Below, in pieces: positions 2,447 through 59,887 of a stretch of DNA of 64,000 nt. A program made the translations under genes and the position numbers. Numbering within the stretch: position 1 is the first letter of the stretch; every line of letters begins with the position of its first letter. The notes beneath the pieces were generated by a model, which was not told the DNA's origin, ran no database searches, and saw nothing but the letters and a program-made list of their open reading frames with translations. The DNA is taken from NCBI GenBank assembly GCA_002011615.1, contig MTOH01000001.1, positions 211,327 through 275,326 of the forward strand. Direction: 5' to 3'. The stretch is from Candidatus Hydrothermus pacificus (GTDB lineage: Bacteria; Hydrothermota; Hydrothermia; Hydrothermales; Hydrothermaceae).

Positions 2447-3853
2447 TTACGGTTTTATAAGTTTAACCTCTTTCAACTTTTTCTGGTTTAAAAACAAAGA
2501 AAGAAAATATATTCCTGCAGGCAAATTGGATATTTTTTTGTCCGAAAGAATAAATAACGGGGTATTAAAAGAACAAAGAGATTTGAAAACAAGAATTCCA
2601 CTGGAATTGTAAAGTAACAACCATATCTTTTTTTCTGTAAAATCCTTTGCCTTAATAAATATCCTATCTTTAAAAAAAGTGGGTATAAAAAAAGAATAAC
2701 TTTTTGAAGAATAACTTTCTTTTATTCTTAAACTCTTTTGTTTTATAAGATAGACATCGTATTCACCTGAACCGAATGAATTAGTCCAACCAGAAATTAC
2801 ATATCCACTATCAGAAGTAATTTCTATCCAGTATCCATAATCATCACCTGTTCCACCCAAAGTTTTTTCCCAGAGGAGATTTCCTGAGGAATCTGTTTTT
2901 ACAAGATAAACATCTTTATAATTTGCACCAGGGGAATCCATCCACCCCACGATGATAAATCCTTTATCTTCTGTCTCTTTAAGGGAATATCCAAAGTCAT
3001 TGCCCACTCCTCCATATGTCCTTTCCCATATCAGATTACCAGTTGAATCTACTTTTATAAGATAAACATCGTATCCACCTGAGCCGTATGAATTGGTATA
3101 TCCTACAACTACATATGAATTATCATATGTCTCCTTCACACAATAACCAGCTTCTGACTCAAGCCCCCCGAATATTCTTAGCCACTCAACACTCCCTGTG
3201 GAATCTAACTTGGCAAGATAAATATCTCCTTTATCTGCGCCAAAAGACCTGGTATATCCTGTTATGATATAACCACTATCCGAGGTCTGTTCAACAGAGT
3301 ATCCCCTATCTGTATTATAACCACCGTATGTCTTTTCCCAGATTATATTTCCTTGGGAATCTGTTTTTAAAAAATAAATATTTGAGACAACTTGTGTATA
3401 TCCTATGATAATGTATCCTCCATCCTGAGTCTGTTCAACCTCATAACCGCATTGATCAGAGGAACTTCCGTAGGTTTTTTGCCAGATTAGATTTCCATTT
3501 AAATCAACTTTTATAAGCAAAATATCATATCCTCCTGCCCCATATGAACAGGTATGTCCCACCAGAACATATCCATCCTGAGTTTCTTCCACACAAAACC
3601 CCATATCCTCAACCTCACCACCGAATGTCTTACTCCATTCCAGATTTCCCAGTGAATCTGTTTTTAAGAGATAAATATCACTGTATCCCGAGCCAAAAGA
3701 ATAGGTATACCCCGTAATTATATATCCTTTATCAGAAGTTTGCTTTACTGAATATCCCCCATCCGAATACGCACCCCCGTAAGTTTTTTCCCATGCTCTA
3801 AGATGAAAAATGCAGAGGATTAAAAAAACAATTATTGTATTATATCTCTCCAT
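2447..3853 (-). CDS. Secreted 7-repeat beta-propeller protein with T9SS-like C-terminal domain
   Basis: Signal peptide; seven ~50-aa repeats W.KTYGG...GY.V.QT.D.GYII.G.T.SFG.G..DVYL.K.DS.GN; C-terminus LPAGIYFLSL...VKLIKP. Confidence 0.8.
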   Translation of the reverse strand: MERYNTIIVFLILCIFHLRAWEKTYGGAYSDGGYSVKQTSDKGYIITGYTYSFGSGYSDIYLLKTDSLGNLEWSKTFGGEVEDMGFCVEETQDGYVLVGHTCSYGAGGYDILLIKVDLNGNLIWQKTYGSSSDQCGYEVEQTQDGGYIIIGYTQVVSNIYFLKTDSQGNIIWEKTYGGYNTDRGYSVEQTSDSGYIITGYTRSFGADKGDIYLAKLDSTGSVEWLRIFGGLESEAGYCVKETYDNSYVVVGYTNSYGSGGYDVYLIKVDSTGNLIWERTYGGVGNDFGYSLKETEDKGFIIVGWMDSPGANYKDVYLVKTDSSGNLLWEKTLGGTGDDYGYWIEITSDSGYVISGWTNSFGSGEYDVYLIKQKSLRIKESYSSKSYSFFIPTFFKDRIFIKAKDFTEKKIWLLLYNSSGILVFKSLCSFNTPLFILSDKKISNLPAGIYFLSLFLNQKKLKEVKLIKP

Positions 3854-3860
3854 TACCTCA

Positions 3861-6800
3861 TCATCTACTGAAAATTATCTTTTTGGTACCTTTTAAATTC
3901 CCTGCATTAATTTTCAGAAAATAAATTCCGGGAGATAAACCCTCTGGTCTTTTTAACTCCACCCGATAAATACCCGGAGAAACAACCTTTTCCTTCAAAA
4001 GTTCAGAAACCTTTCTCCCCATAACATCATAAAGCATTATCTTAATTGGAGAGGATTCTCTTACACTGTGTATAAGCAAAAATTTATCTTTGACGAAAGT
4101 GGGATAAACTTCTAAATTAACCTCTGGAGTAAATCCTTTGCCATGAGGTCCACCTTCGCCTCTATAAGGGAGAATTACTATCAGTCCGCACACCGCCTTG
4201 GAGCCCAAACCCCTTAATTTTAAATTTAAAACACTGTCATAAACAGGCACATGGGTTATAAAAGCACTTAAATCTCCTGAATTGAGATTCCATACCCCGC
4301 TGAATTCTGAATTTACATAAACTTCCTCTTCCCTTTGAAGGTCCGAATATGCAATTAGTGTAATAACGTATGTCCCTGAAGGGAGTTTTATATTGTAAAC
4401 AAGTGAATCACCAAGGTCTACTAACTGATAATACTCATCTTTACCCAGAATAAGTGTGCCTTCCCTATATTGTGTAAAAGAGGTTTGATAAGGTTCACCC
4501 GTATATAAAATCGTAGCCTGTGGTTCAACAAGTACATTCTTTCTGAAGGGTAAATCATAAATGGGCACTAATTTCTTCTGAAAAACTGAAAAAAGATAAG
4601 GCGTGGTTAAAATCCTCCCACACTCTATACTCACATATTTTCTCTCCTCAGAACCCCTGTCAATAACCGTTATCCCTGACCAACCGGTATTTGTTAACCT
4701 CCTGAATACCACCTCATTCCTCAACCACTCACTGTGCACCTGAGTCCACGTAACTATCAAAGGTTCAGGATAATGTATTTGAGGATAATCTGAAATGTAA
4801 ATTGAACTGCTTAAAGGAGTAGGAATCCCCCATGCGTTATCACCCCTTTCTGAATAATAAACTATATTATTGTGAATCCACACACAACAGGGAGTACCAT
4901 CAGATTTTATACCAAGAAAGGGATGTACCGCATAATGAGTTGTAGGAGATACCTGTTCAGGAGAACTCCATTCATTACCTGTCCAGTATTTGTAAATTAT
5001 CTTTGAACCACCGTCAGTGCTTTGATATACAACCGCGGGATTACCATCAGGTAAAATTGTAAGTGAAGCCCATCTCACGTCACAACCCATAGCTGCGGCA
5101 GGATAAAGATAAAGGGTAGGATTCGGAACCCTGGTATTGAAAGCGCCCACCTTTAACTCCCTCCAGAAATTCGTAATAAATGCAACAAAACCCATACCAT
5201 CATCCCTTATGTGAAAACAGGGAGAGGTTATTGATCCTCCTACCTCGGAAGTCCTGTAAAGAAGCCACGGCTCAGAAGGCCATCCGTTTGAAATCCTTCC
5301 CACTCCGTAAAGAAGCGTGTCATCCTTAACAAATATTATATAAGGATTATAATCAGGATTTATATCAATTGCAGGAATTTTCCCATCAAAGATCTCCTTT
5401 TTTGGAGTAAAGGTATTACCGTTATCAGTAGAATATGTGACAAAGATTCCATTACCGGATTCATAAACCACCCACAGTGTATCCCTTGCCCTTTTTAACT
5501 TCACACCACCGTTGAAATACAAAGCATTCTCTGATGAACTGGTCAGCTGGTCCTTCTCCCAGGGTGTTTCTATGAAATATATTCCTTTATTTTCTGCTTT
5601 CACAAAAATAGTGTCTTTATAATAAAGATCAACCTCAATTTTCTCAATAGTTGCATCAGGCACAGGAAAACTCATCTCAAACCATACCCTTCCCAAATCA
5701 ACCGAATAAAAAAGTTTACTATACCCCCAATTTTGAGGAGGATTTTCCATTCCTGACGCAACCGCATATAAAATTGCAGGGTCTTCAGGGTCAGAAGTTA
5801 TATCATTTATGCCGTAACCCTCTATATAAAAAACTTCTCTCCATGAATCACCGTAATCATCGCTTCTCCATATCTTATAACCCGTTCCTGCAAAAACTCT
5901 TGAAGAATTTATCCTGCCGTATGCTTCAAGAGAATAAATCTTTCCGATAGGTGAAATAAAATACTCCCAGTTTTCACCATCAAAAGTTCTGAAAAAGTAA
6001 TTATTGAATCTATTTACAGACGCCCCATAGGCTATTTTCCCTGTTGCAGCAGAAAGGTCAGTAAGCCAAGTTTCGGTATTCTGAATTATTGGTCCACCTA
6101 CCCATGTAAGTCCACCATTGGTTGTTCTGTATGCACTTATATATTCTCCTAGGGTAACATCTCCCATTGCAAAAGCGGTATCTTTATTGTTAGAATCAAT
6201 AAGTCTTATCTTTTCAGATGCAACTTTATGTAATTCCCATGTCTCACCTCCGTCAAAACTCATATAGATTTTACCACCAGTATCCGCTAGTGTTCCTATA
6301 AACGAAAGGAAAAGTCTGTTAAAATCATCATATGCTATATCAAAATCCCCGATTTGAAAAAGGGAGTTAACAAATTTCAATTTCCATACCTCATTTATCC
6401 TTTTCCATATAGATTTACTAAAACCCGTATAAATTTTAAACTCTGCTGATTTTAAAATATCCAGATTATTCTGAGTAAGAACTCCATTCATATTCATATC
6501 ATCCCATGTATTTCCGTTATCAACTGAATAAAAGAGGGTAAAATCACTCCCCACATAGATATAACCTGTTTCCTTGTCAAAACATACCTTTCTTAAATAC
6601 CTTTTCCTGTATTCTATTCCATTGTTTGAATAATACCAGTTTGTTCCTCCTCCTTTCAAAATTCCTTTCCAATTTGTGGTTGCAATGAAATAAGGTAATC
6701 CGGCGGTTCCTGGAATATAAGAATATTCCATATCAGTAATATAATTAATGGTAGGACCTTCTTCATAAACTGTTTCCCATGTTGCACCTCCATCAAAACT

Positions 6801-46301: not shown

Positions 46302-46336
46302 TTTCGGGGGTGTAGCTCAGTGGGAGAGCACTGCCT
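46302..46336 (+). repeat. attL: tRNA-Ala 5' fragment (tRNA nt 1 at 46306)
   Basis: tttcGGGGGTGTAGCTCAGTGGGAGAGCACTGCCT, identical to 60107-60141. Confidence 0.95.
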
Positions 46337-46840: not shown

Positions 46841-47322
46841 CTCACACCTATCCCCGGGATAAAATTTTTATCTTTAAAATTATATTGGACAAAAAAACTC
46901 AAAAATTTATATGAAAGTCCTATATGAATATTGGAGAAAGTAATTCCTGCAAAAACCTCTCCATATTTTTCTTTTTTAGGACCTTTAAAAATGGATTTAA
47001 AAATAACTTTTTCTTTTTGAAATATTTTATATTCAAAATTTCTAAAAGTATCCGCTTCAAACTGAATTTCAAGAAGTGAATCCCGATACTTAAAAAGTTT
47101 CCATAAAATAGGTTTATATATTGTTTCCTGTTTTGCGGACGGTATTTTAATAATTTGAAATTCATAATAGGGTATGGTATCCTTAATCGGTTTAATTTTT
47201 TCAACCATAACCGGGATTTCAATTTCAAATTTCGGTTTAATTAAAAAAGAATAAATCAAAAGCCCTGTTAAAAGACCGAGTATAAATCCGTATAGAAATC
47301 TAAAAAAGCGAGATTTGTTCAA
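46828..47322 (-). CDS. Membrane-anchored protein with C-terminal beta-strand/aromatic end
   Basis: N-terminal TM (FLYGFILGLLTGLLIYSFLI); ends GIGVRWQF. Confidence 0.55.
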   Translation of the reverse strand: MNKSRFFRFLYGFILGLLTGLLIYSFLIKPKFEIEIPVMVEKIKPIKDTIPYYEFQIIKIPSAKQETIYKPILWKLFKYRDSLLEIQFEADTFRNFEYKIFQKEKVIFKSIFKGPKKEKYGEVFAGITFSNIHIGLSYKFLSFFVQYNFKDKNFIPGIGVRWQF

Positions 47323-47845
47323 TTGATTCCCTCAAGTCTTCAAGTTCAATATTTAGATATATTTTAAGAAATGAATATCCTGAGTGTCCCAAAGCTCTTC
47401 TTACATTCTCAAGATTTTCTCCTTTTTTCAGGAGCATTGTCGCAAAATAATGTCTGAATACATGTGGGTTAAGTCCGTATTTCTGATAGAATAAAAAGAC
47501 TGCCTGTCTTGTGATATTCCATATTTTCCCTTTTTTCTCTTCTTCTGGAAACTTCAAAAGAGCTTCATAAACTTTTGAATGTAGTGGTATCTCCCTGGTT
47601 ATTTTCTCTCTTTTTTTAAGCTGCACTACCCAGGCGGTTCTTTCTTCAAAGTTGACATCTTCCCACTTTAAGGAGAGTGCTTCTGAAATTCTGAGACCCT
47701 GTAATATTAAAAATCTTGTTAATGACCAGTATTTCCATCTTTTTAAATCTTCAGGGTTCTCGCTGTACCATTCCTCAATTTTTTTAATTGTTTGCCTAAC
47801 CCTTTTTAATTTTTGCAGTATTTCAGGTTTTAGATGGTATTCCAT
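47300..47845 (-). CDS. Small tyrosine recombinase (catalytic domain only)
   Basis: GLRISEAL, HVFRHYFAT, LGH, IY: complete R-H-R-H-Y set in 181 aa. Confidence 0.88.
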   Translation of the reverse strand: MEYHLKPEILQKLKRVRQTIKKIEEWYSENPEDLKRWKYWSLTRFLILQGLRISEALSLKWEDVNFEERTAWVVQLKKREKITREIPLHSKVYEALLKFPEEEKKGKIWNITRQAVFLFYQKYGLNPHVFRHYFATMLLKKGENLENVRRALGHSGYSFLKIYLNIELEDLRESIEQISLF

Positions 47846-48030: not shown

Positions 48031-48195
48031 TCATTTTTTGCGTTTTTTCCTTTCAAAGATCTGTTTTATGACCTTTTCTGAGAGTATCATCGGAACCGGT
48101 TTGTCTTCCTTTTTAGCTTCCTTCTCCAGTTCATCATAGTATTTTTTGGGGATTACCACCCTTACAACCCTCATTTCTTCTTTTTTTTCAGCCAT
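48031..48195 (-). CDS. Ribbon-helix-helix (CopG/Arc-like) DNA-binding protein, 54 aa, below the ORF-track cutoff
   Basis: SD AAGGAGGTG; MAEKKEEMRVVRVVIPKKYYDELEKEAKKEDKPVPMILSEKVIKQIFERKKRKK fits a strand-helix-helix pattern. Confidence 0.7.
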   Translation of the reverse strand: MAEKKEEMRVVRVVIPKKYYDELEKEAKKEDKPVPMILSEKVIKQIFERKKRKK

Positions 48196-48198
48196 GAT

Positions 48199-48390
48199 TC
48201 ACCTCCTTTTAAAGTTTTTTTGGGTTAAATCAATTCCAAAAGTCATCCTGATCATTCTTCTTACAAGGAAGGATTGTGTTTTATTTGGTAAAAGATACTC
48301 CAGGATTTCATTAATTATTTCTTTATCACCTTGATAAATTAATTTTTTTATCTCCCGTAGGGTCAAATTTTCAAGTTTCTCCCTGTTCAT
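48199..48390 (-). CDS. Hypothetical protein
   Basis: 63 aa, sits between the 275-aa ORF and the RHH gene. Confidence 0.5.
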   Translation of the reverse strand: MNREKLENLTLREIKKLIYQGDKEIINEILEYLLPNKTQSFLVRRMIRMTFGIDLTQKNFKRR

Positions 48391-49198
48391 TTTTTTCCAT
48401 CTCCTCTTTTAATTGTTGAGCGGTTAAATAACCGTCAACCAATCTTAAAATTTTTGCGAATTTTCTTCCTGTTTTTCCGAAGGTATCTTCTAAGAGTTCT
48501 TCAATTAGATCATAATTACCTTCTTTTATGGCATTAGCAATCGCTTCTTGGTCAATTTCCTGTTCTTCCTTCTCTTCTTCTTCAGGGATATATGCATTTT
48601 CCATTATATTCCTCATTATCTCAATCTGGTTCTTAGCCATTTCATTAAATATTTGCATTTGGGATTGGAGAAAATTCTTAGAAATCTCGGTTATGAAGGA
48701 AAGATCCATGGAATTTTGGTTCTGTTTAAGTGCTGAAACCAATTCTCTTGCTGCTTCAGGAGTTAAAATTATTGCTCCCTGCAATGGATTTATTTGTGAA
48801 TTTTCCTTTTTTTCTGTTTCAAGGGCATAATTTGATGGAATTTGCCTTGCAATGCCATTTTTAATTTCAAAATAAATGGTATTCGGAAATACAGGAGACC
48901 CTCCGGGATTTCTCAAATCAATCCTGTATATTCCGTCTCCATATTCCTGGAAGATAACATCTGCATTCAGAGGAGATTTAAATGGTTTTTCACTAATGAT
49001 TTGAAATTGATCCTCTATTTTTTTATAAATGTAGATATGGATTTTTTTATCTACCATTATAGTTTGAGAGAGAAAATCAGCCAGAATTTCTTTATTTTTA
49101 GATTTTTTAGTCCTTTTTCTGGACTTTTTGGTTGTTTTTTCTCCATTTTCGGTTATTTTTTCCTCATTTTTATCCAGAATTTCCTCATTTTCACCCAT
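48371..49198 (-). CDS. Hypothetical protein (charged N-terminus, beta-rich middle, helical Q/M-rich C-terminus)
   Basis: SD AGGAGG; first gene of the leftward operon; no family motif recognised. Confidence 0.6.
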   Translation of the reverse strand: MGENEEILDKNEEKITENGEKTTKKSRKRTKKSKNKEILADFLSQTIMVDKKIHIYIYKKIEDQFQIISEKPFKSPLNADVIFQEYGDGIYRIDLRNPGGSPVFPNTIYFEIKNGIARQIPSNYALETEKKENSQINPLQGAIILTPEAARELVSALKQNQNSMDLSFITEISKNFLQSQMQIFNEMAKNQIEIMRNIMENAYIPEEEEKEEQEIDQEAIANAIKEGNYDLIEELLEDTFGKTGRKFAKILRLVDGYLTAQQLKEEMEKNEQGET

Positions 49199-49206
49199 TT
49201 TTTACC

Positions 49207-49327
49207 TCCTTTTACGCTGTTTAATCGCCAACTTAACGCTATTTAATCGCTCTTTGATCGCTATTGAATCGCTATTTAATCGCAGACTTAACGCTACCAT
49301 AACGCAAATTAAACGCTATTTAATCGC
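49207..49327. repeat. Tandem array of eleven 11-bp units, consensus TATTTAATCGC
   Basis: Invariant CGC at 49215, 49226, 49237, 49248, 49259, 49270, 49281, 49292, 49303, 49314, 49325. Confidence 0.92.
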
Positions 49328-49493
49328 ATTTTCAAAAGTTTTTTTAACATTATTACGAAAAATTTAACATTATTTCCATATAATTTTATATAAATTGAGT
49401 TTTAAAAATAATTGATTCCGAAAGATATTTAAAAAACAGTTTATATGAGCTTATATAGATTTTTCATGAAAAATTTTTTATAATTCAACCGTT

Positions 49494-50282
49494 ATGAAAA
49501 AAATAATGTTAAAATCTCTCGGGACGCTTCCTTCGGGAGATGCAGGGACAGAGATAACTGTCCGGCATCTCATAAAACTTATAAAAGAAGGTTCTCATGA
49601 CCCTTTAATTATCTGGACAGCCAGGAAAATAGTTCAAACTTCTCATGCAAAAACCCCTTTTGAAAGAGCTAAGGCAATTTTTGAATGGGTAAAAAAGAAT
49701 ATTTCTTATACCAAGGATCCTAAAGGACTGGAACTTATAAGGTCTGTGAGGAAAATTCTGGAAGATAAAATAGGTGATTGTGACGAGCATGTGGTTTTAA
49801 CCGCTTCCCTGTTCAGAGCAATAGGTTTACCGGTTGCACTTGTTACGATCTCCACACCTCAGAATCCGGAGAATTTTTCACATATCTATTCGATTGTTAA
49901 AGCCGGAAGAATATGGTATCCTGCTGATACAATAATACCTGGTGCAAATTTTGGATTCCAGTATCCTTATGCAGTCAGAAAAAAGATATGGGCAATTGAT
50001 TATCAAAAACCATCCCTTGAGAATCTGGAAGGGCTTGAAGGATTTTTTGACTGGATGAAATCAATCAAAGAAAAAGTTGGTTCTGTATTGACCCGTGCAT
50101 GGCGTAAAGGTAGAAAAGCATTCAAAGAAGAAATTTACAGGACTGGTGAGGAATTCATTCAGAAACAAAAACAAAAAGCTGCGCAGGAAATACAGAAAGC
50201 CCAGACAGAAAATATTCTAATGTGGTCTTTGGTTATAATTACAATCCTAATTTTAGCATGGTTTTTTACAAGAGTGAGGTGA
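49494..50282 (+). CDS. Transglutaminase-like Cys protease with C-terminal membrane anchor
   Basis: IFEWVK.NI.Y..DP, GDCDE (Cys), SHIY (His), WYPAD (Asp); C-terminal TM. Confidence 0.8.
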   Translation: MKKIMLKSLGTLPSGDAGTEITVRHLIKLIKEGSHDPLIIWTARKIVQTSHAKTPFERAKAIFEWVKKNISYTKDPKGLELIRSVRKILEDKIGDCDEHVVLTASLFRAIGLPVALVTISTPQNPENFSHIYSIVKAGRIWYPADTIIPGANFGFQYPYAVRKKIWAIDYQKPSLENLEGLEGFFDWMKSIKEKVGSVLTRAWRKGRKAFKEEIYRTGEEFIQKQKQKAAQEIQKAQTENILMWSLVIITILILAWFFTRVR

Positions 50283-51647: not shown

Positions 51648-52328
51648 ATGGCTGAAACATTACTTGTAAATCCGAGAAAAAGAAAAAAGAAAAAAACAAA
51701 GAAGAGAAAAGCAAGAAGGAATACAGCATTGGTTAATCCCAGAAAGAAAAGAAGGAAAGCCAGACGAAATCCTTTCAGATTCAAAAAGCCGAAAGTTGGA
51801 GTCGGAGATGCGATTGCTTCTGTCATAGGCGGAACTCTTCAAGGACTTTCTGAGAAACTCCTTACACTTTTCAAAAAGAAGGACGGTAATCCTGTTATTC
51901 CCGGTCCCATAAGGAATGTCGCTTTTCCTGTGGTTTCTTTTATTGGTTCGGGAATGATTCCTAAGGGGGAAGAAGTCACTCTGGGTGCGATAGGTGCTGC
52001 TGGTGAAAAGGTATCAATGGAAATTCTTAAAAAAGTTCTCCCTCAGAATATCAAATCCAGGTTTGGTCTTGAAGGTATAGAAATTTCCGGACTCGGAGAG
52101 CTTACTCCGGAAGATGTTGCTTATCTGAACAAGATGATTCCTTATGTAATGGCTTACAGACACGAGCTTGAAAAACATTTATCCGAAGAGCCTATAAAAA
52201 GACCACAGGCAAGGCAAATAAATCAACCAGGATTTCCTGGTGGCGGAATGTTACCTGGTGGTGGAGGATTAGGAAGTTTGGATGATATATCAGCAATTAA
52301 AAATCTTTCTATAAAACTAAAAAATTAA
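51648..52328 (+). CDS. Basic protein with NP-Arg/Lys repeats and hydrophobic core; putative DNA-condensing or membrane virion protein
   Basis: SD AGGAGGTG; LVNPRKRKKKK, LVNPRKKRRK, RRNP. Confidence 0.6.
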   Translation: MAETLLVNPRKRKKKKTKKRKARRNTALVNPRKKRRKARRNPFRFKKPKVGVGDAIASVIGGTLQGLSEKLLTLFKKKDGNPVIPGPIRNVAFPVVSFIGSGMIPKGEEVTLGAIGAAGEKVSMEILKKVLPQNIKSRFGLEGIEISGLGELTPEDVAYLNKMIPYVMAYRHELEKHLSEEPIKRPQARQINQPGFPGGGMLPGGGGLGSLDDISAIKNLSIKLKN

Positions 52329-57945: not shown

Positions 57946-58361
57946 GACCCACCTCCTGCTCTAATTTTCAGGAGTTCTCTGGGGTTTTTAGCGACCCCGG
58001 AAACTCCTGTATCAGAAAAAAAATATTTCCGGAATTTTCCGGGTTTAATCACCCACCAATAACTCACTTTTTCTCCTGTTTTAAAAACAAAAATTCTTCC
58101 TTTCGGATTAAATTCATTCCATGCCTGTTTATAAGAAAAAGCAAAAGTCAGTTTAGAATTTTCAAGGAATTTTCTTGGATCCGAAATATACCACCATTTT
58201 TCTTTATTCAAATCCAGGACAATCTTATTAGGATAGGCATAGAAATTATCATAACAGGTTTTACATATATATCCTTTTTTCTCTACTCTAAAAAATTTCC
58301 TTTTAATTTCGATAATTTCTCTTCCAATGGACCTCATTCCACACAGATCACAGAGTTTCAT
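57942..58361 (-). CDS. Zn-finger-like hypothetical protein
   Basis: CDLC...CKTC; overlaps the integrase stop. Confidence 0.55.
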   Translation of the reverse strand: MKLCDLCGMRSIGREIIEIKRKFFRVEKKGYICKTCYDNFYAYPNKIVLDLNKEKWWYISDPRKFLENSKLTFAFSYKQAWNEFNPKGRIFVFKTGEKVSYWWVIKPGKFRKYFFSDTGVSGVAKNPRELLKIRAGGGS

Positions 58362-59887
58362 TTTCTAATTCCTTTTTTATCTTCAAGTTCCTTTAATTTT
58401 TTTACATTATAAATTTCCATAATCAAATGGTTTACAAATTCAACCATTGGATTTCTTTTATTTTCTCTTAATGGGTGGATATATCCTTCGGTACTGTGAT
58501 ATGATACCCATCCTCCCAATTCTTTAATGATTCTCATTGGAGTCCCCATATCCTCTGCTCGTGTAGCCCAATTATGTCTGAAATCATGAAAATAAAAATT
58601 CTCTATTTCACATTTTTTCAAGAATTCATTATAAAACCATTCGGTAAATCGTCTTTGTTGATATCCTGTCTGAAAGTCAGGGAAAAGCATATCAGAACCT
58701 TTTGATACAGATAATAAAAACATAGCGAGTCCATAAGGGATTTCAATTTTTCTTTCTTTCCCTGTTTTTGTAATATCAGATGTAAAATGAATCATTCCAT
58801 ACATTTTATCATCAATTTTAACAATTCTCACATGTTCCTTTCTCAGTTTAAAAATTTCTTCTTTCCTTGCTCCGGTAAAGAGCCCAATCCATAAAATTCC
58901 TCTTTTCTGTTTATTTATTCTATCATCAGGTAACTCAAGAGTTGCCTTTAGAAATCTTATGGTTTCCTCATAAGATAGAACTCTCTTTCTTCTTTTTTCT
59001 TCAAATTTCCTCTCTTTTAGAATTTTATCTGCATAATTAATTCCTGTAAAATATCCATTTCTCAAAAGGTAATTCCACACTGCATTTAAAAATTTCAACT
59101 CACTTTTAATTGTTGATTCAGTAATGTATTCTCCTGTTTTTTCACTTTTATCTTTAAGTCTTTCGTTGATGTAATTTTCCAGGGTGATCTCATTAATTTT
59201 ATACCAAGGGAAATCTTCTCCCCATTTTTTAAAAAATCCGCTTAATCTATGGAAAAAATATCTTAATTTCCCGAGGTCTTGTTTCCTGGAGAAATGATAT
59301 TCAGCATAGATTTTCACTCCTTCTCCGAATGTCAAATCTCTTTTATTTTTTATCTTTTCCCTTGCAATTTCCCGTGCAAAAGCCTCTGCCTCTTCATAAG
59401 TGTCAAAAAGATATGATTTAACTTTTCCTTCTTTTTTTATCTGTATTAACCACTTCCTTCCATGCTTTCTAATTTTCGGCATTCTTTTATCCAGTTTATG
59501 AATTACAGGTTTTTTGGATTCCATCTTAGGGGTTCTTTCATACTTTATCTTTTTTTCTGCCTCTTTCAAAATCTCTTCTTTATATTTTTCTGCATCTTCT
59601 GATATTTTAAGTTGTTTCTCAATAACCATTTTTATTCCTGCCTTCCATGCGGTTTTATAATCTTCAAAAAACATCCTTTTTCTTATTCTTTTTCCTGTTT
59701 GTGGATCCTTTCCGAGTTGAATTTCCACTCTCCATTTTTTACCTCTTCCTGTTTTATAAGGTGTAGGTATTCTGAGCCATTTAAGACCCATAATGAGATG
59801 CTTTCCGTCCTGTGAAATTTGATATTCCTTTCCCTTATACCTTACAATATTATTATGGATTTCAATTTCAGGAAGTTTTTCTTCCAT
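58358..59887 (-). CDS. Tyrosine integrase with two N-terminal arm-binding-like domains
   Basis: TGARKEEI, FHDFRHNWAT, LGGW, TEGY; KWRVEI...RKRMFF and KWLIQI...SYLFDTYEEAEAF. Confidence 0.93.
   Translation of the reverse strand: MEEKLPEIEIHNNIVRYKGKEYQISQDGKHLIMGLKWLRIPTPYKTGRGKKWRVEIQLGKDPQTGKRIRKRMFFEDYKTAWKAGIKMVIEKQLKISEDAEKYKEEILKEAEKKIKYERTPKMESKKPVIHKLDKRMPKIRKHGRKWLIQIKKEGKVKSYLFDTYEEAEAFAREIAREKIKNKRDLTFGEGVKIYAEYHFSRKQDLGKLRYFFHRLSGFFKKWGEDFPWYKINEITLENYINERLKDKSEKTGEYITESTIKSELKFLNAVWNYLLRNGYFTGINYADKILKERKFEEKRRKRVLSYEETIRFLKATLELPDDRINKQKRGILWIGLFTGARKEEIFKLRKEHVRIVKIDDKMYGMIHFTSDITKTGKERKIEIPYGLAMFLLSVSKGSDMLFPDFQTGYQQRRFTEWFYNEFLKKCEIENFYFHDFRHNWATRAEDMGTPMRIIKELGGWVSYHSTEGYIHPLRENKRNPMVEFVNHLIMEIYNVKKLKELEDKKGIRK

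Follow-up and report, generated by a model that had tools for sequence, protein, structure and literature searches.

A helically phased array of 11-bp repeats in a provirus of a WOR-3 bacterium and its possible role as a replication origin

Described repeat systems and the 11-bp array

Plasmid iterons are 17-22 bp long, are present in 3-7 copies at a spacing of about two helical turns and are bound by winged-helix Rep proteins; in P1 oriR-repA an AT-rich region, the iterons and a downstream gene follow one another, and the iterons double as an autoregulatory operator. In the par locus of plasmid R1 the order is parC-parM-parR. R1 parC has its 11-bp iterons arranged in two groups of five around the par promoter, binds one ParR dimer per iteron and serves as both operator and centromere (PMC2241845). 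R388 stbS holds ten 9-bp stbDR units (C/T-TGCATCAT) that are set at an 11-bp period by 2-bp spacers, and the helix-turn-helix (HTH) protein StbA binds it in a system that works without a plasmid nucleoside triphosphatase (NTPase) (10.1101/2022.04.29.490116). In phage SPP1, oriL consists of direct repeats together with an AT-rich DNA unwinding element within gene 38, which places the origin inside the initiator gene (PMC6316719). Here we describe an array of eleven 11-bp units in a 64,000-nucleotide stretch of DNA (hereafter the window) from contig MTOH01000001.1 of Candidatus Hydrothermus pacificus, in which the array is located in a 13.8-kb provirus of this WOR-3 bacterium, at the head of a leftward operon that begins with genes for proteins of 275 and 63 amino acids (aa). 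Taken together our comparisons suggest, with a probability of roughly 0.4, that the array represents replication-origin iterons that also autoregulate the operon. The array and its immediate surroundings comprise the following features:

49207-49327, minus strand: array of 11 head-to-tail 11-bp units with the consensus WGCGWTWAAWN; the minus strand is the sense strand of the 275-aa gene
49205-49209, minus strand: Shine-Dalgarno (SD) sequence GGAGG, within the last repeat unit and serving the 275-aa gene, whose ATG is at 49198-49196
48371-49198, minus strand: gene for the orphan 275-aa protein, in which a basic arm (residues 21-36) and a confidently predicted beta-sandwich (about 30-130) are followed by a poly-Glu linker and a C-terminus of helices
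48199-48390, minus strand: gene for the basic 63-aa protein (pI 10.1), with four short helices predicted at a model confidence (pLDDT) of 77
49328-49493, no strand: AT-rich spacer between the array and the structural operon, 166 bp and 84% AT, which holds the divergent promoters and is a candidate unwinding element

An initial annotation of this DNA had pointed to a CGC recurring every 11 bp, eleven times, and this is what we find: the eleven copies lie in exact 11-bp steps (at 49215, 49226 and so on to 49325 of the window) and form a run that is unique in the genome. For none of the other periods between 5 and 39 bp does the 64-kb window hold a CGC run of more than two, against a CGC frequency of about 3 per kb, and the interval 48900-49700 is free of GCG. 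Tandem Repeats Finder delimits the array at 49215-49331, with a period of 11, 10.7 copies and a 55-bp super-period. Moreover, the three-unit pattern (GCGWT-N6)x3 has no second match in the 2.06-Mb genome; the GCGWT core by itself occurs about ten further times, scattered over the rest of the 13.8-kb element. The minus-strand units read TGCGATTAAAT, AGCGTTTAATT, TGCGTTATGGT and so forth up to the final unit, AGCGTAAAAGG, which runs into the SD, the SD-proximal unit (49207-49217) being degenerate and including it. We found no inverted core site within the array and no other iteron-like feature in the element, of which the array is the sole one. The claim that the array adjoins the SD of the leftward operon and is followed by AT-rich DNA was equally borne out, as the SD lies at 49205-49209 and the 166 bp beyond the array (49328-49493) are 84% AT compared to 67% element-wide, ranking among the top two stretches of the element in AT content and situated at the point where its two operons diverge. 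A coding role for the array was considered and rejected, given that a period of 11 nt is not divisible by 3 and that the open reading frames (ORFs) crossing it, such as 49128-49367 on the plus strand or one of 53 aa called on the opposite strand in the relative L009, are not conserved.

Among the described systems, R1 parC/ParR is similar to our locus in that ten to eleven direct repeats of 11 bp head an operon, the DNA is AT-rich and phased, and a small protein of DNA-binding type is encoded downstream, with autoregulation expected; the initial annotation had cited parC as ten 11-bp repeats bound by ParR, in agreement with the published 2x5 iterons (PMC2241845). However, the present array is one continuous block downstream of its predicted promoter rather than two five-unit blocks with the promoter between them, an actin-like ParM is missing, and the gene for a probable ribbon-helix-helix (RHH) protein in the operon does not co-vary with the array. 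Set against what makes up a type II partition system, the locus has the iteron array and has neither ParM nor an iteron-linked RHH protein. With R388 stbS the array shares the 11-bp period, about 10 copies upstream of an operon, a TGC-containing core and the lack of an element-encoded NTPase, and we count the dual operator and centromere role of stbS as a further likeness. The two differ in that stbS is divided into two sets of five and that StbA, a tri-helical HTH protein, is the product of the first gene, whereas here the first gene encodes an acidic beta-sandwich protein and the model of the 63-aa protein gave no significant fold match to StbA or PadR. Phage organizer origins (SPP1 oriL/gp38, DUF1376, Phage_rep_org_N) likewise have direct repeats next to AT-rich DNA that are transcribed with a neighboring gene, and the arrays in organizer genes of IMG/VR share both the GCGWT core and the 11-bp period. 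In those origins, however, the repeats lie inside the initiator ORF, while our array is intergenic and upstream of the non-homologous 275-aa gene, in an element with no helicase, loader or primase. Finally, the order AT-rich region, iterons, gene is that of P1 oriR-repA, and direct repeats adjoining an AT-rich region, as expected of an iteron origin, are present; unlike in iteron plasmids, the units are 11 bp, with no DnaA-box cluster and no winged-helix fold predicted.

Conservation of the array and its level of action

Homologs of the 275-aa protein were found in a set of 5.8 billion proteins (seven, with 92-48% identity), through a profile search of 1.84 billion representatives (seven more distant ones) and in a genome of the same class, G062 (one more), and DNA was compared for 14 distinct elements, the window included. 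A phylum-wide genome search yielded G062 as its one true distant relative together with a single false positive, an M23 peptidase in G128, and pattern searches based on the protein alignment gave no relatives in the genome and viral contigs, poly-Glu patterns being uninformative. All 14 elements have the same divergent layout, in which a transglutaminase gene lies on one side and a 275-aa homolog followed by a protein of about 62 aa lies on the other. The search for similar arrays in related elements, which the initial annotation had proposed as a check, shows that 13 of these 14 carry one (the window, L001, L002, L004, L006, L007, L010, L011, L015, L017, L018, L019 and L228). Their arrays have 7-11 units at the 11-bp period, and this across carriers whose 275-aa proteins range from 92% identity down to a similarity seen by profile only (E=1.7e-6 in L015). 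In most arrays all steps are 11 bp; a single 12-bp step occurs in L007, L010, L011 and L015, a few irregular steps are found in L017, L018 and L228, and a 10-bp step was observed once only (L018). Departures from 11 bp are mostly to 12 bp and are seen in the more remote relatives.

Alignment of 85 units from nine elements shows G at position 2 in 85/85 and C at position 3 in 84/85, with G or A at position 4, T at position 6 in 74/85, and positions 8 and 11 nearly free of information. The natural variants of the whole comparison set, with their changed spacers and copy numbers, define WGCRWT as the putative recognition core. The most distant elements have variants of it, namely T(G/C)CG(G/A)TT in L017, TTGCG mixed with TTACCG in L019 and TGCA in L018. 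Between the window and its 92% relative L001 we count 12 substitutions in the array, of which 0 fall in the GC dinucleotide. Copy number shifts between close relatives (8 in L004 and 9 in L006), and duplications of 22, 44 and 55 bp are visible within the arrays, which together suggest that the array turns over by whole units while its phase and core are kept. That the core is maintained while flanks and copy number drift argues for a selected binding array at the DNA level, and its retention in 13/14 elements supports a functional cis-acting array for protein binding. To this extent the proposal of the initial annotation (an origin, a centromere-like or packaging site, or an operator) is upheld, although the link that it implied between array and RHH protein finds no support in the phyletic pattern.

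The element L228 has a somewhat different arrangement at 1560-1750, where an 8-unit array (TTGCGTTCTTG) and about 45 bp of AT-rich DNA are enclosed by two 27-bp inverted repeats (AAGGTTCATTTTTAAAAAATGACCCTT and its complement), and where the array is about 130 bp from the downstream SD.

A promoter candidate bears on whether the array acts as DNA or as RNA:

49349-49378, minus strand: predicted sigma-70-like promoter of the leftward operon, TGGAAA-N18-AATAAT

By eye, -35-like and -10-like hexamers are seen at about the same place in most relatives, and since the promoter candidate is upstream of the array, the array DNA would be transcribed leader in most elements. TRAP and CsrA bind repeated triplets near an SD, and by analogy the UGCGWU motifs in the 5' leader of the operon could be bound by a protein that controls translation or stability. 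In keeping with such a role, the array is downstream of the predicted transcription start site, its last unit and the SD overlap in close relatives, and the motif is always on the sense strand. However, the leader RNA folds no better than shuffled sequences (z=+1.0 and +0.19), on which ground leader RNA structure was rejected, and steps of 11, with 10 seen in L018 only, fit the helical repeat better than single-strand spacing. The distance to the SD also varies, from the roughly 130 bp in L228 to an array that ends 15 nt before the SD in L015, and the equivalent phage arrays are antisense inside ORFs. We consider an RNA-level function very improbable. Combined, the unstructured leader, the 11-bp steps and the position of the L228 array off the leader suggest that the array acts as duplex DNA, and we conclude that it is very probably a DNA-level protein-binding array of some function.

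Candidate binding proteins

The array always occurs with the 275-aa gene, and with the gene for the ~62-aa protein as well wherever the contig reaches that far. Its constant adjacency keeps the 275-aa protein among the candidate partners, in line with the earlier suggestion that this ORF might be a new initiator or partition factor, although no homology to any initiator or partition protein was found: Pfam, PHROGs and tblastn against phages and plasmids gave nothing significant, and the protein has no NTPase motif, no actin or tubulin fold and no recognizable DNA-binding fold. Structure prediction, a further check that the initial annotation had proposed, gave an AlphaFold2 model with a mean pLDDT of 61 in which residues 30-130 (about 90) form a beta-sandwich, accompanied by helices, but this model has no fold match (see below). 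In one homolog, a 250-aa protein of L229 (4001-4753), residues 118-234 match T6SS_FHA_C just above the Pfam cut-off (25.1 vs 23.7 bits), which may reflect coiled-coil or acidic composition or may be a hint on the C-terminal half of the family. By linkage and charge, the candidacy of the 63-aa protein as binder is stronger than that of the RHH protein; its model gave no significant Foldseek match, including to StbA, PadR and centromere-binding proteins, and it has no profile match in the PDB. The 275-aa protein could contribute to binding through its basic arm together with an invariant K-x-LLADFL segment.

Two other genes of the operon were considered as sources of the binder:

48031-48195, minus strand: 54-aa probable RHH protein, not found in every array carrier
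47300-47845, minus strand: 181-aa tyrosine recombinase consisting of the catalytic domain only, not coupled to the array

The 54-aa protein, which the initial annotation had called RHH, has an RHH-looking pattern (RVVRVVI-P-x3-Y-x-ELEKEA...ELLSEKI). The window protein itself has no RHH match in Pfam and its family no profile match in the PDB, whereas homologs match RHH_5 (E=4e-4, in L007, and 3e-3) and RHH_1 (E=0.03 in L007 and 9e-3 in L229), so that the sequence support for the call is weak and comes from the homologs. In the RHH slot of L019 (7014-7331) we observe a 105-aa protein with RHH_1 at residues 22-51, which reaches the cut-off, and RHH_4 at residues 76-100, and which by its sequence looks like a covalently fused RHH 'dimer'. 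As a general binder of the array, on the analogy of ParR, the RHH protein was rejected because the two do not coincide: L011, L017 and L228 keep the array with no RHH homolog in the slot after the 62-aa gene (there are unrelated small ORFs in L011 and L017 and nothing in L228), while L229 has the RHH gene and no array.

These observations bear on whether the array could be the centromere-like site and operator of an NTPase-free segregation or tethering system, in which a small basic protein (the 63-aa or the RHH protein) would coat the array, repress the operon and hand the episome to the 275-aa protein as adaptor or to a host structure. R1 parC and R388 stbS are the closest literature matches to the array in period and copy number, and the order of array, larger acidic protein and small basic protein resembles the parC-parM-parR layout. 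The same operon encodes a recombinase of the multimer-resolution kind, and the loss of the array in L229 would be tolerable for a dispensable stability site. However, there is no ParM, ParA or TubZ, and the larger protein has neither the motif nor the folds of a partition NTPase. The RHH gene does not co-occur with the array, the model of the 63-aa protein matches no centromere-binding protein, and for a 13.8-kb provirus that integrates, an origin is a greater need than partition. We view a centromere as unlikely, although the geometry suits a centromere or operator as well as an origin.

The small tyrosine recombinase was rejected as binder on the evidence of L015 (G062:C108), in which the recombinase slot (2571-3182), elsewhere held by the 180-aa catalytic-domain-only tyrosine recombinase, encodes a small serine resolvase (Resolvase+HTH_7, E=4e-30) and the array is kept. 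This non-orthologous replacement suggests that the job of the slot is multimer resolution or inversion rather than integration. It also bears on the idea that the array provides accessory or arm-type sites for a synapse in resolution or excision, to which the presence in the same operon of a 181-aa recombinase with no DNA-binding N-domain would lend some appeal; but L015 retains the array although its complete serine resolvase brings its own HTH, in L228 a membrane protein gene follows directly after the 61-aa gene with no recombinase between, and the array contains no inverted core site. As a variant, the array might nucleate packaging or condensation by a very basic structural protein (51648-52328), for which there is nothing beyond the fact that no packaging ATPase was found in the element. 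We regard recombination and packaging alike as hardly probable.

Origin, operators and the provirus

We favor origin iterons with autoregulation for several reasons. The array is the only iteron-like feature of the element and lies beside a very AT-rich stretch at the point where the operons diverge, and it is kept in nearly all relatives, fixed beside one gene pair as iterons are beside rep genes. An exchangeable resolvase-type recombinase points to a plasmid-like replicon-maintenance module, for which an origin would be needed; moreover any autonomous phase needs an origin, and no other candidate exists. In the mechanism that we propose, some ten equally spaced WGCRWT cores, one per helical turn and in a single orientation, would form an assembly site on DNA to which an element-encoded protein would bind cooperatively, each unit taking up a single protomer or dimer, so that a nucleoprotein filament or wrap would form. 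The adjacent AT-rich 166 bp would be the candidate unwinding element, and the partners would be the 275-aa and 63-aa proteins rather than the RHH protein. As the array fills the DNA from the predicted promoter to the SD, the bound complex would also throttle its own operon and so lead to autoregulation.

A comparable geometry is found in phages. We scanned IMG/VR with (GCGWT-N6)x4 and obtained 11-bp GCGWT arrays of 5-10 units; of about 58 loci with at least 5 units, 22 have the array within an ORF of the DUF1376 family and 12 within one that resembles Phage_rep_org_N. The motif is usually antisense in these organizer genes, and in several loci a DnaB or primase gene comes after it. The arrays within organizer genes are likely origins, which would make GCGWT units at an 11-bp period a common origin design among phages. 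Two different organizer families appear to use a near-identical iteron geometry, and examples among these loci (L108-L227) are L117 at 1810-1919, L165 at 2660-2714 and L201 at 4487-4541.

Several observations weigh against an origin. The IMG/VR scan was seeded with the core motif, and therefore shows that such origins exist and offers resemblance only. In L229 the array is absent from the 5.7 kb of contig examined, control region included, and a dispensable site could be missing more readily than an origin. The 275-aa protein is acidic (pI 4.9) save for its 16-residue arm with 10 Lys/Arg, and by Foldseek its fold has no match in the PDB (E<0.1) or BFVD. It has neither a predicted winged-helix fold nor a match to any Rep family, and its family aligns to DUF1376 and Phage_rep_org_N with hhalign probabilities of 0.07% and 0.34%. 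For the 63-aa protein there is no recognizable HTH match. Pfam and PHROGs revealed no likeness to an initiator, helicase, primase or polymerase among the proteins of the element. There is no cluster of DnaA boxes, with isolated one-mismatch matches only, and AT-richness at a promoter is expected anyway in a genome of 31-40% GC.

The control region also bears on a purely transcriptional function, and contains further repeats:

49343-49374, minus strand: pair of direct AATAATGTTAAA repeats at a distance of 20 bp, overlapping the candidate promoter of the leftward operon
49376-49394, minus strand: TTATAT-N4-TTATAT box beside the leftward -35, inverted partner of the box at 49439-49458
49439-49458, plus strand: TTATAT-N4-TTATAT box facing the structural operon
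49494-50282, plus strand: gene for the transglutaminase-core protein, first of the rightward structural operon, with TATAAT at 49479-49484

Mycobacteriophage 'stoperators' block elongation through bound repressor, and the array might act in the same way with its sites in tandem, or as a wrapped switch for the divergent operons. The array does fill the space from the candidate promoter to the SD in most relatives, all its units have one orientation relative to transcription, and several small basic proteins are encoded nearby. However, the TTATAT boxes (an inverted pair about 45 bp apart) and the two AATAATGTTAAA repeats are two further conserved repeat sets already placed on the promoters; the AATAATGTTAAA pair is probably a separate operator, and both sets are likely better candidates than the array for ordinary operators, serving other small proteins of the element. 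Eight to eleven sites are also far beyond what an operator needs. Moreover, the array of L228 is detached from the leader, so that position relative to the promoter is not conserved; with the array about 130 bp upstream of the SD, an exact promoter or SD position would not be essential, which weakens the reading as a pure roadblock operator. An exclusively transcriptional role is, in our view, rather unlikely.

On the other side of the control region, the transglutaminase-core gene has no SD, and its TATAAT-like hexamer ends 9 nt before the ATG, as examined with L001, L002 and L004, relatives having CATAAT or TAAAAT at the same place; the leftward operon by contrast has a strong AAGGAGG. The structural-operon mRNA is probably leaderless.

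The borders of the provirus are as follows:

46302-46336, plus strand: attL copy of a perfect direct repeat of 35 bp that holds the 5' half of a tRNA gene, at the left end of the element
60107-60141, plus strand: attR copy of this repeat, located within the tRNA gene at the right end and beside the integrase gene
58358-59887, minus strand: gene for the 509-aa integrase

Its rightward operon encodes the transglutaminase-core protein, membrane proteins, orphans, a glucosaminidase lysin and a PaREP1-domain protein, and its leftward operon the 275-aa, 63-aa and 54-aa proteins, the 181-aa tyrosine recombinase, a membrane protein and small basic or zinc-finger proteins. The initial annotation had noted the lack of ParM, ParA and any known Rep, and this is borne out by Pfam and PHROGs searches of nearly all sizeable ORFs of the element, in which no Rep, helicase, primase, polymerase, ParA, ParM, TubZ or terminase was found. 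The tRNA at the att site (60111-60181) is called 'tRNA-???' by ARAGORN, with a four-base anticodon (cgca). Its acceptor stem carries G3:U70, an Ala identity element, and its anticodon arm (CTGCC-TCGCAC-GGCAG) has a 6-nt loop that becomes 8 nt if the closing pair opens. Integration in the 5' half of the tRNA gene parts the intact copy from the host promoter.

Helically phased iteron arrays are a familiar device, and what is new here are the partner proteins and the host. The host is placed in WOR-3 by its TldD gene, whose closest matches (79-84% identity) come almost entirely from WOR-3 metagenome-assembled genomes. To our knowledge the WOR-3 phylum has no cultured member, and a literature search found no described virus of WOR-3. 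It is possible, and we propose it only tentatively, that the array and the 275-aa and 63-aa proteins form an undescribed NTPase-free module for replication initiation or segregation, with no ancestry shared with known Rep, ParABS, ParMRC, TubZRC or StbA systems, carried by temperate viruses that are small, contain a membrane and probably lack a tail, and that would make up a new family infecting WOR-3 and related uncultured bacteria. From the 14 variants compared, one protomer per helical turn is predicted. As the sole clearly selected cis-element of a provirus family with no recognizable replication, partition or packaging protein, the array offers a 121-bp bait with which to find its binder, starting with the two small orphan proteins, and with it a route to a possibly new family of initiator or segregation proteins.

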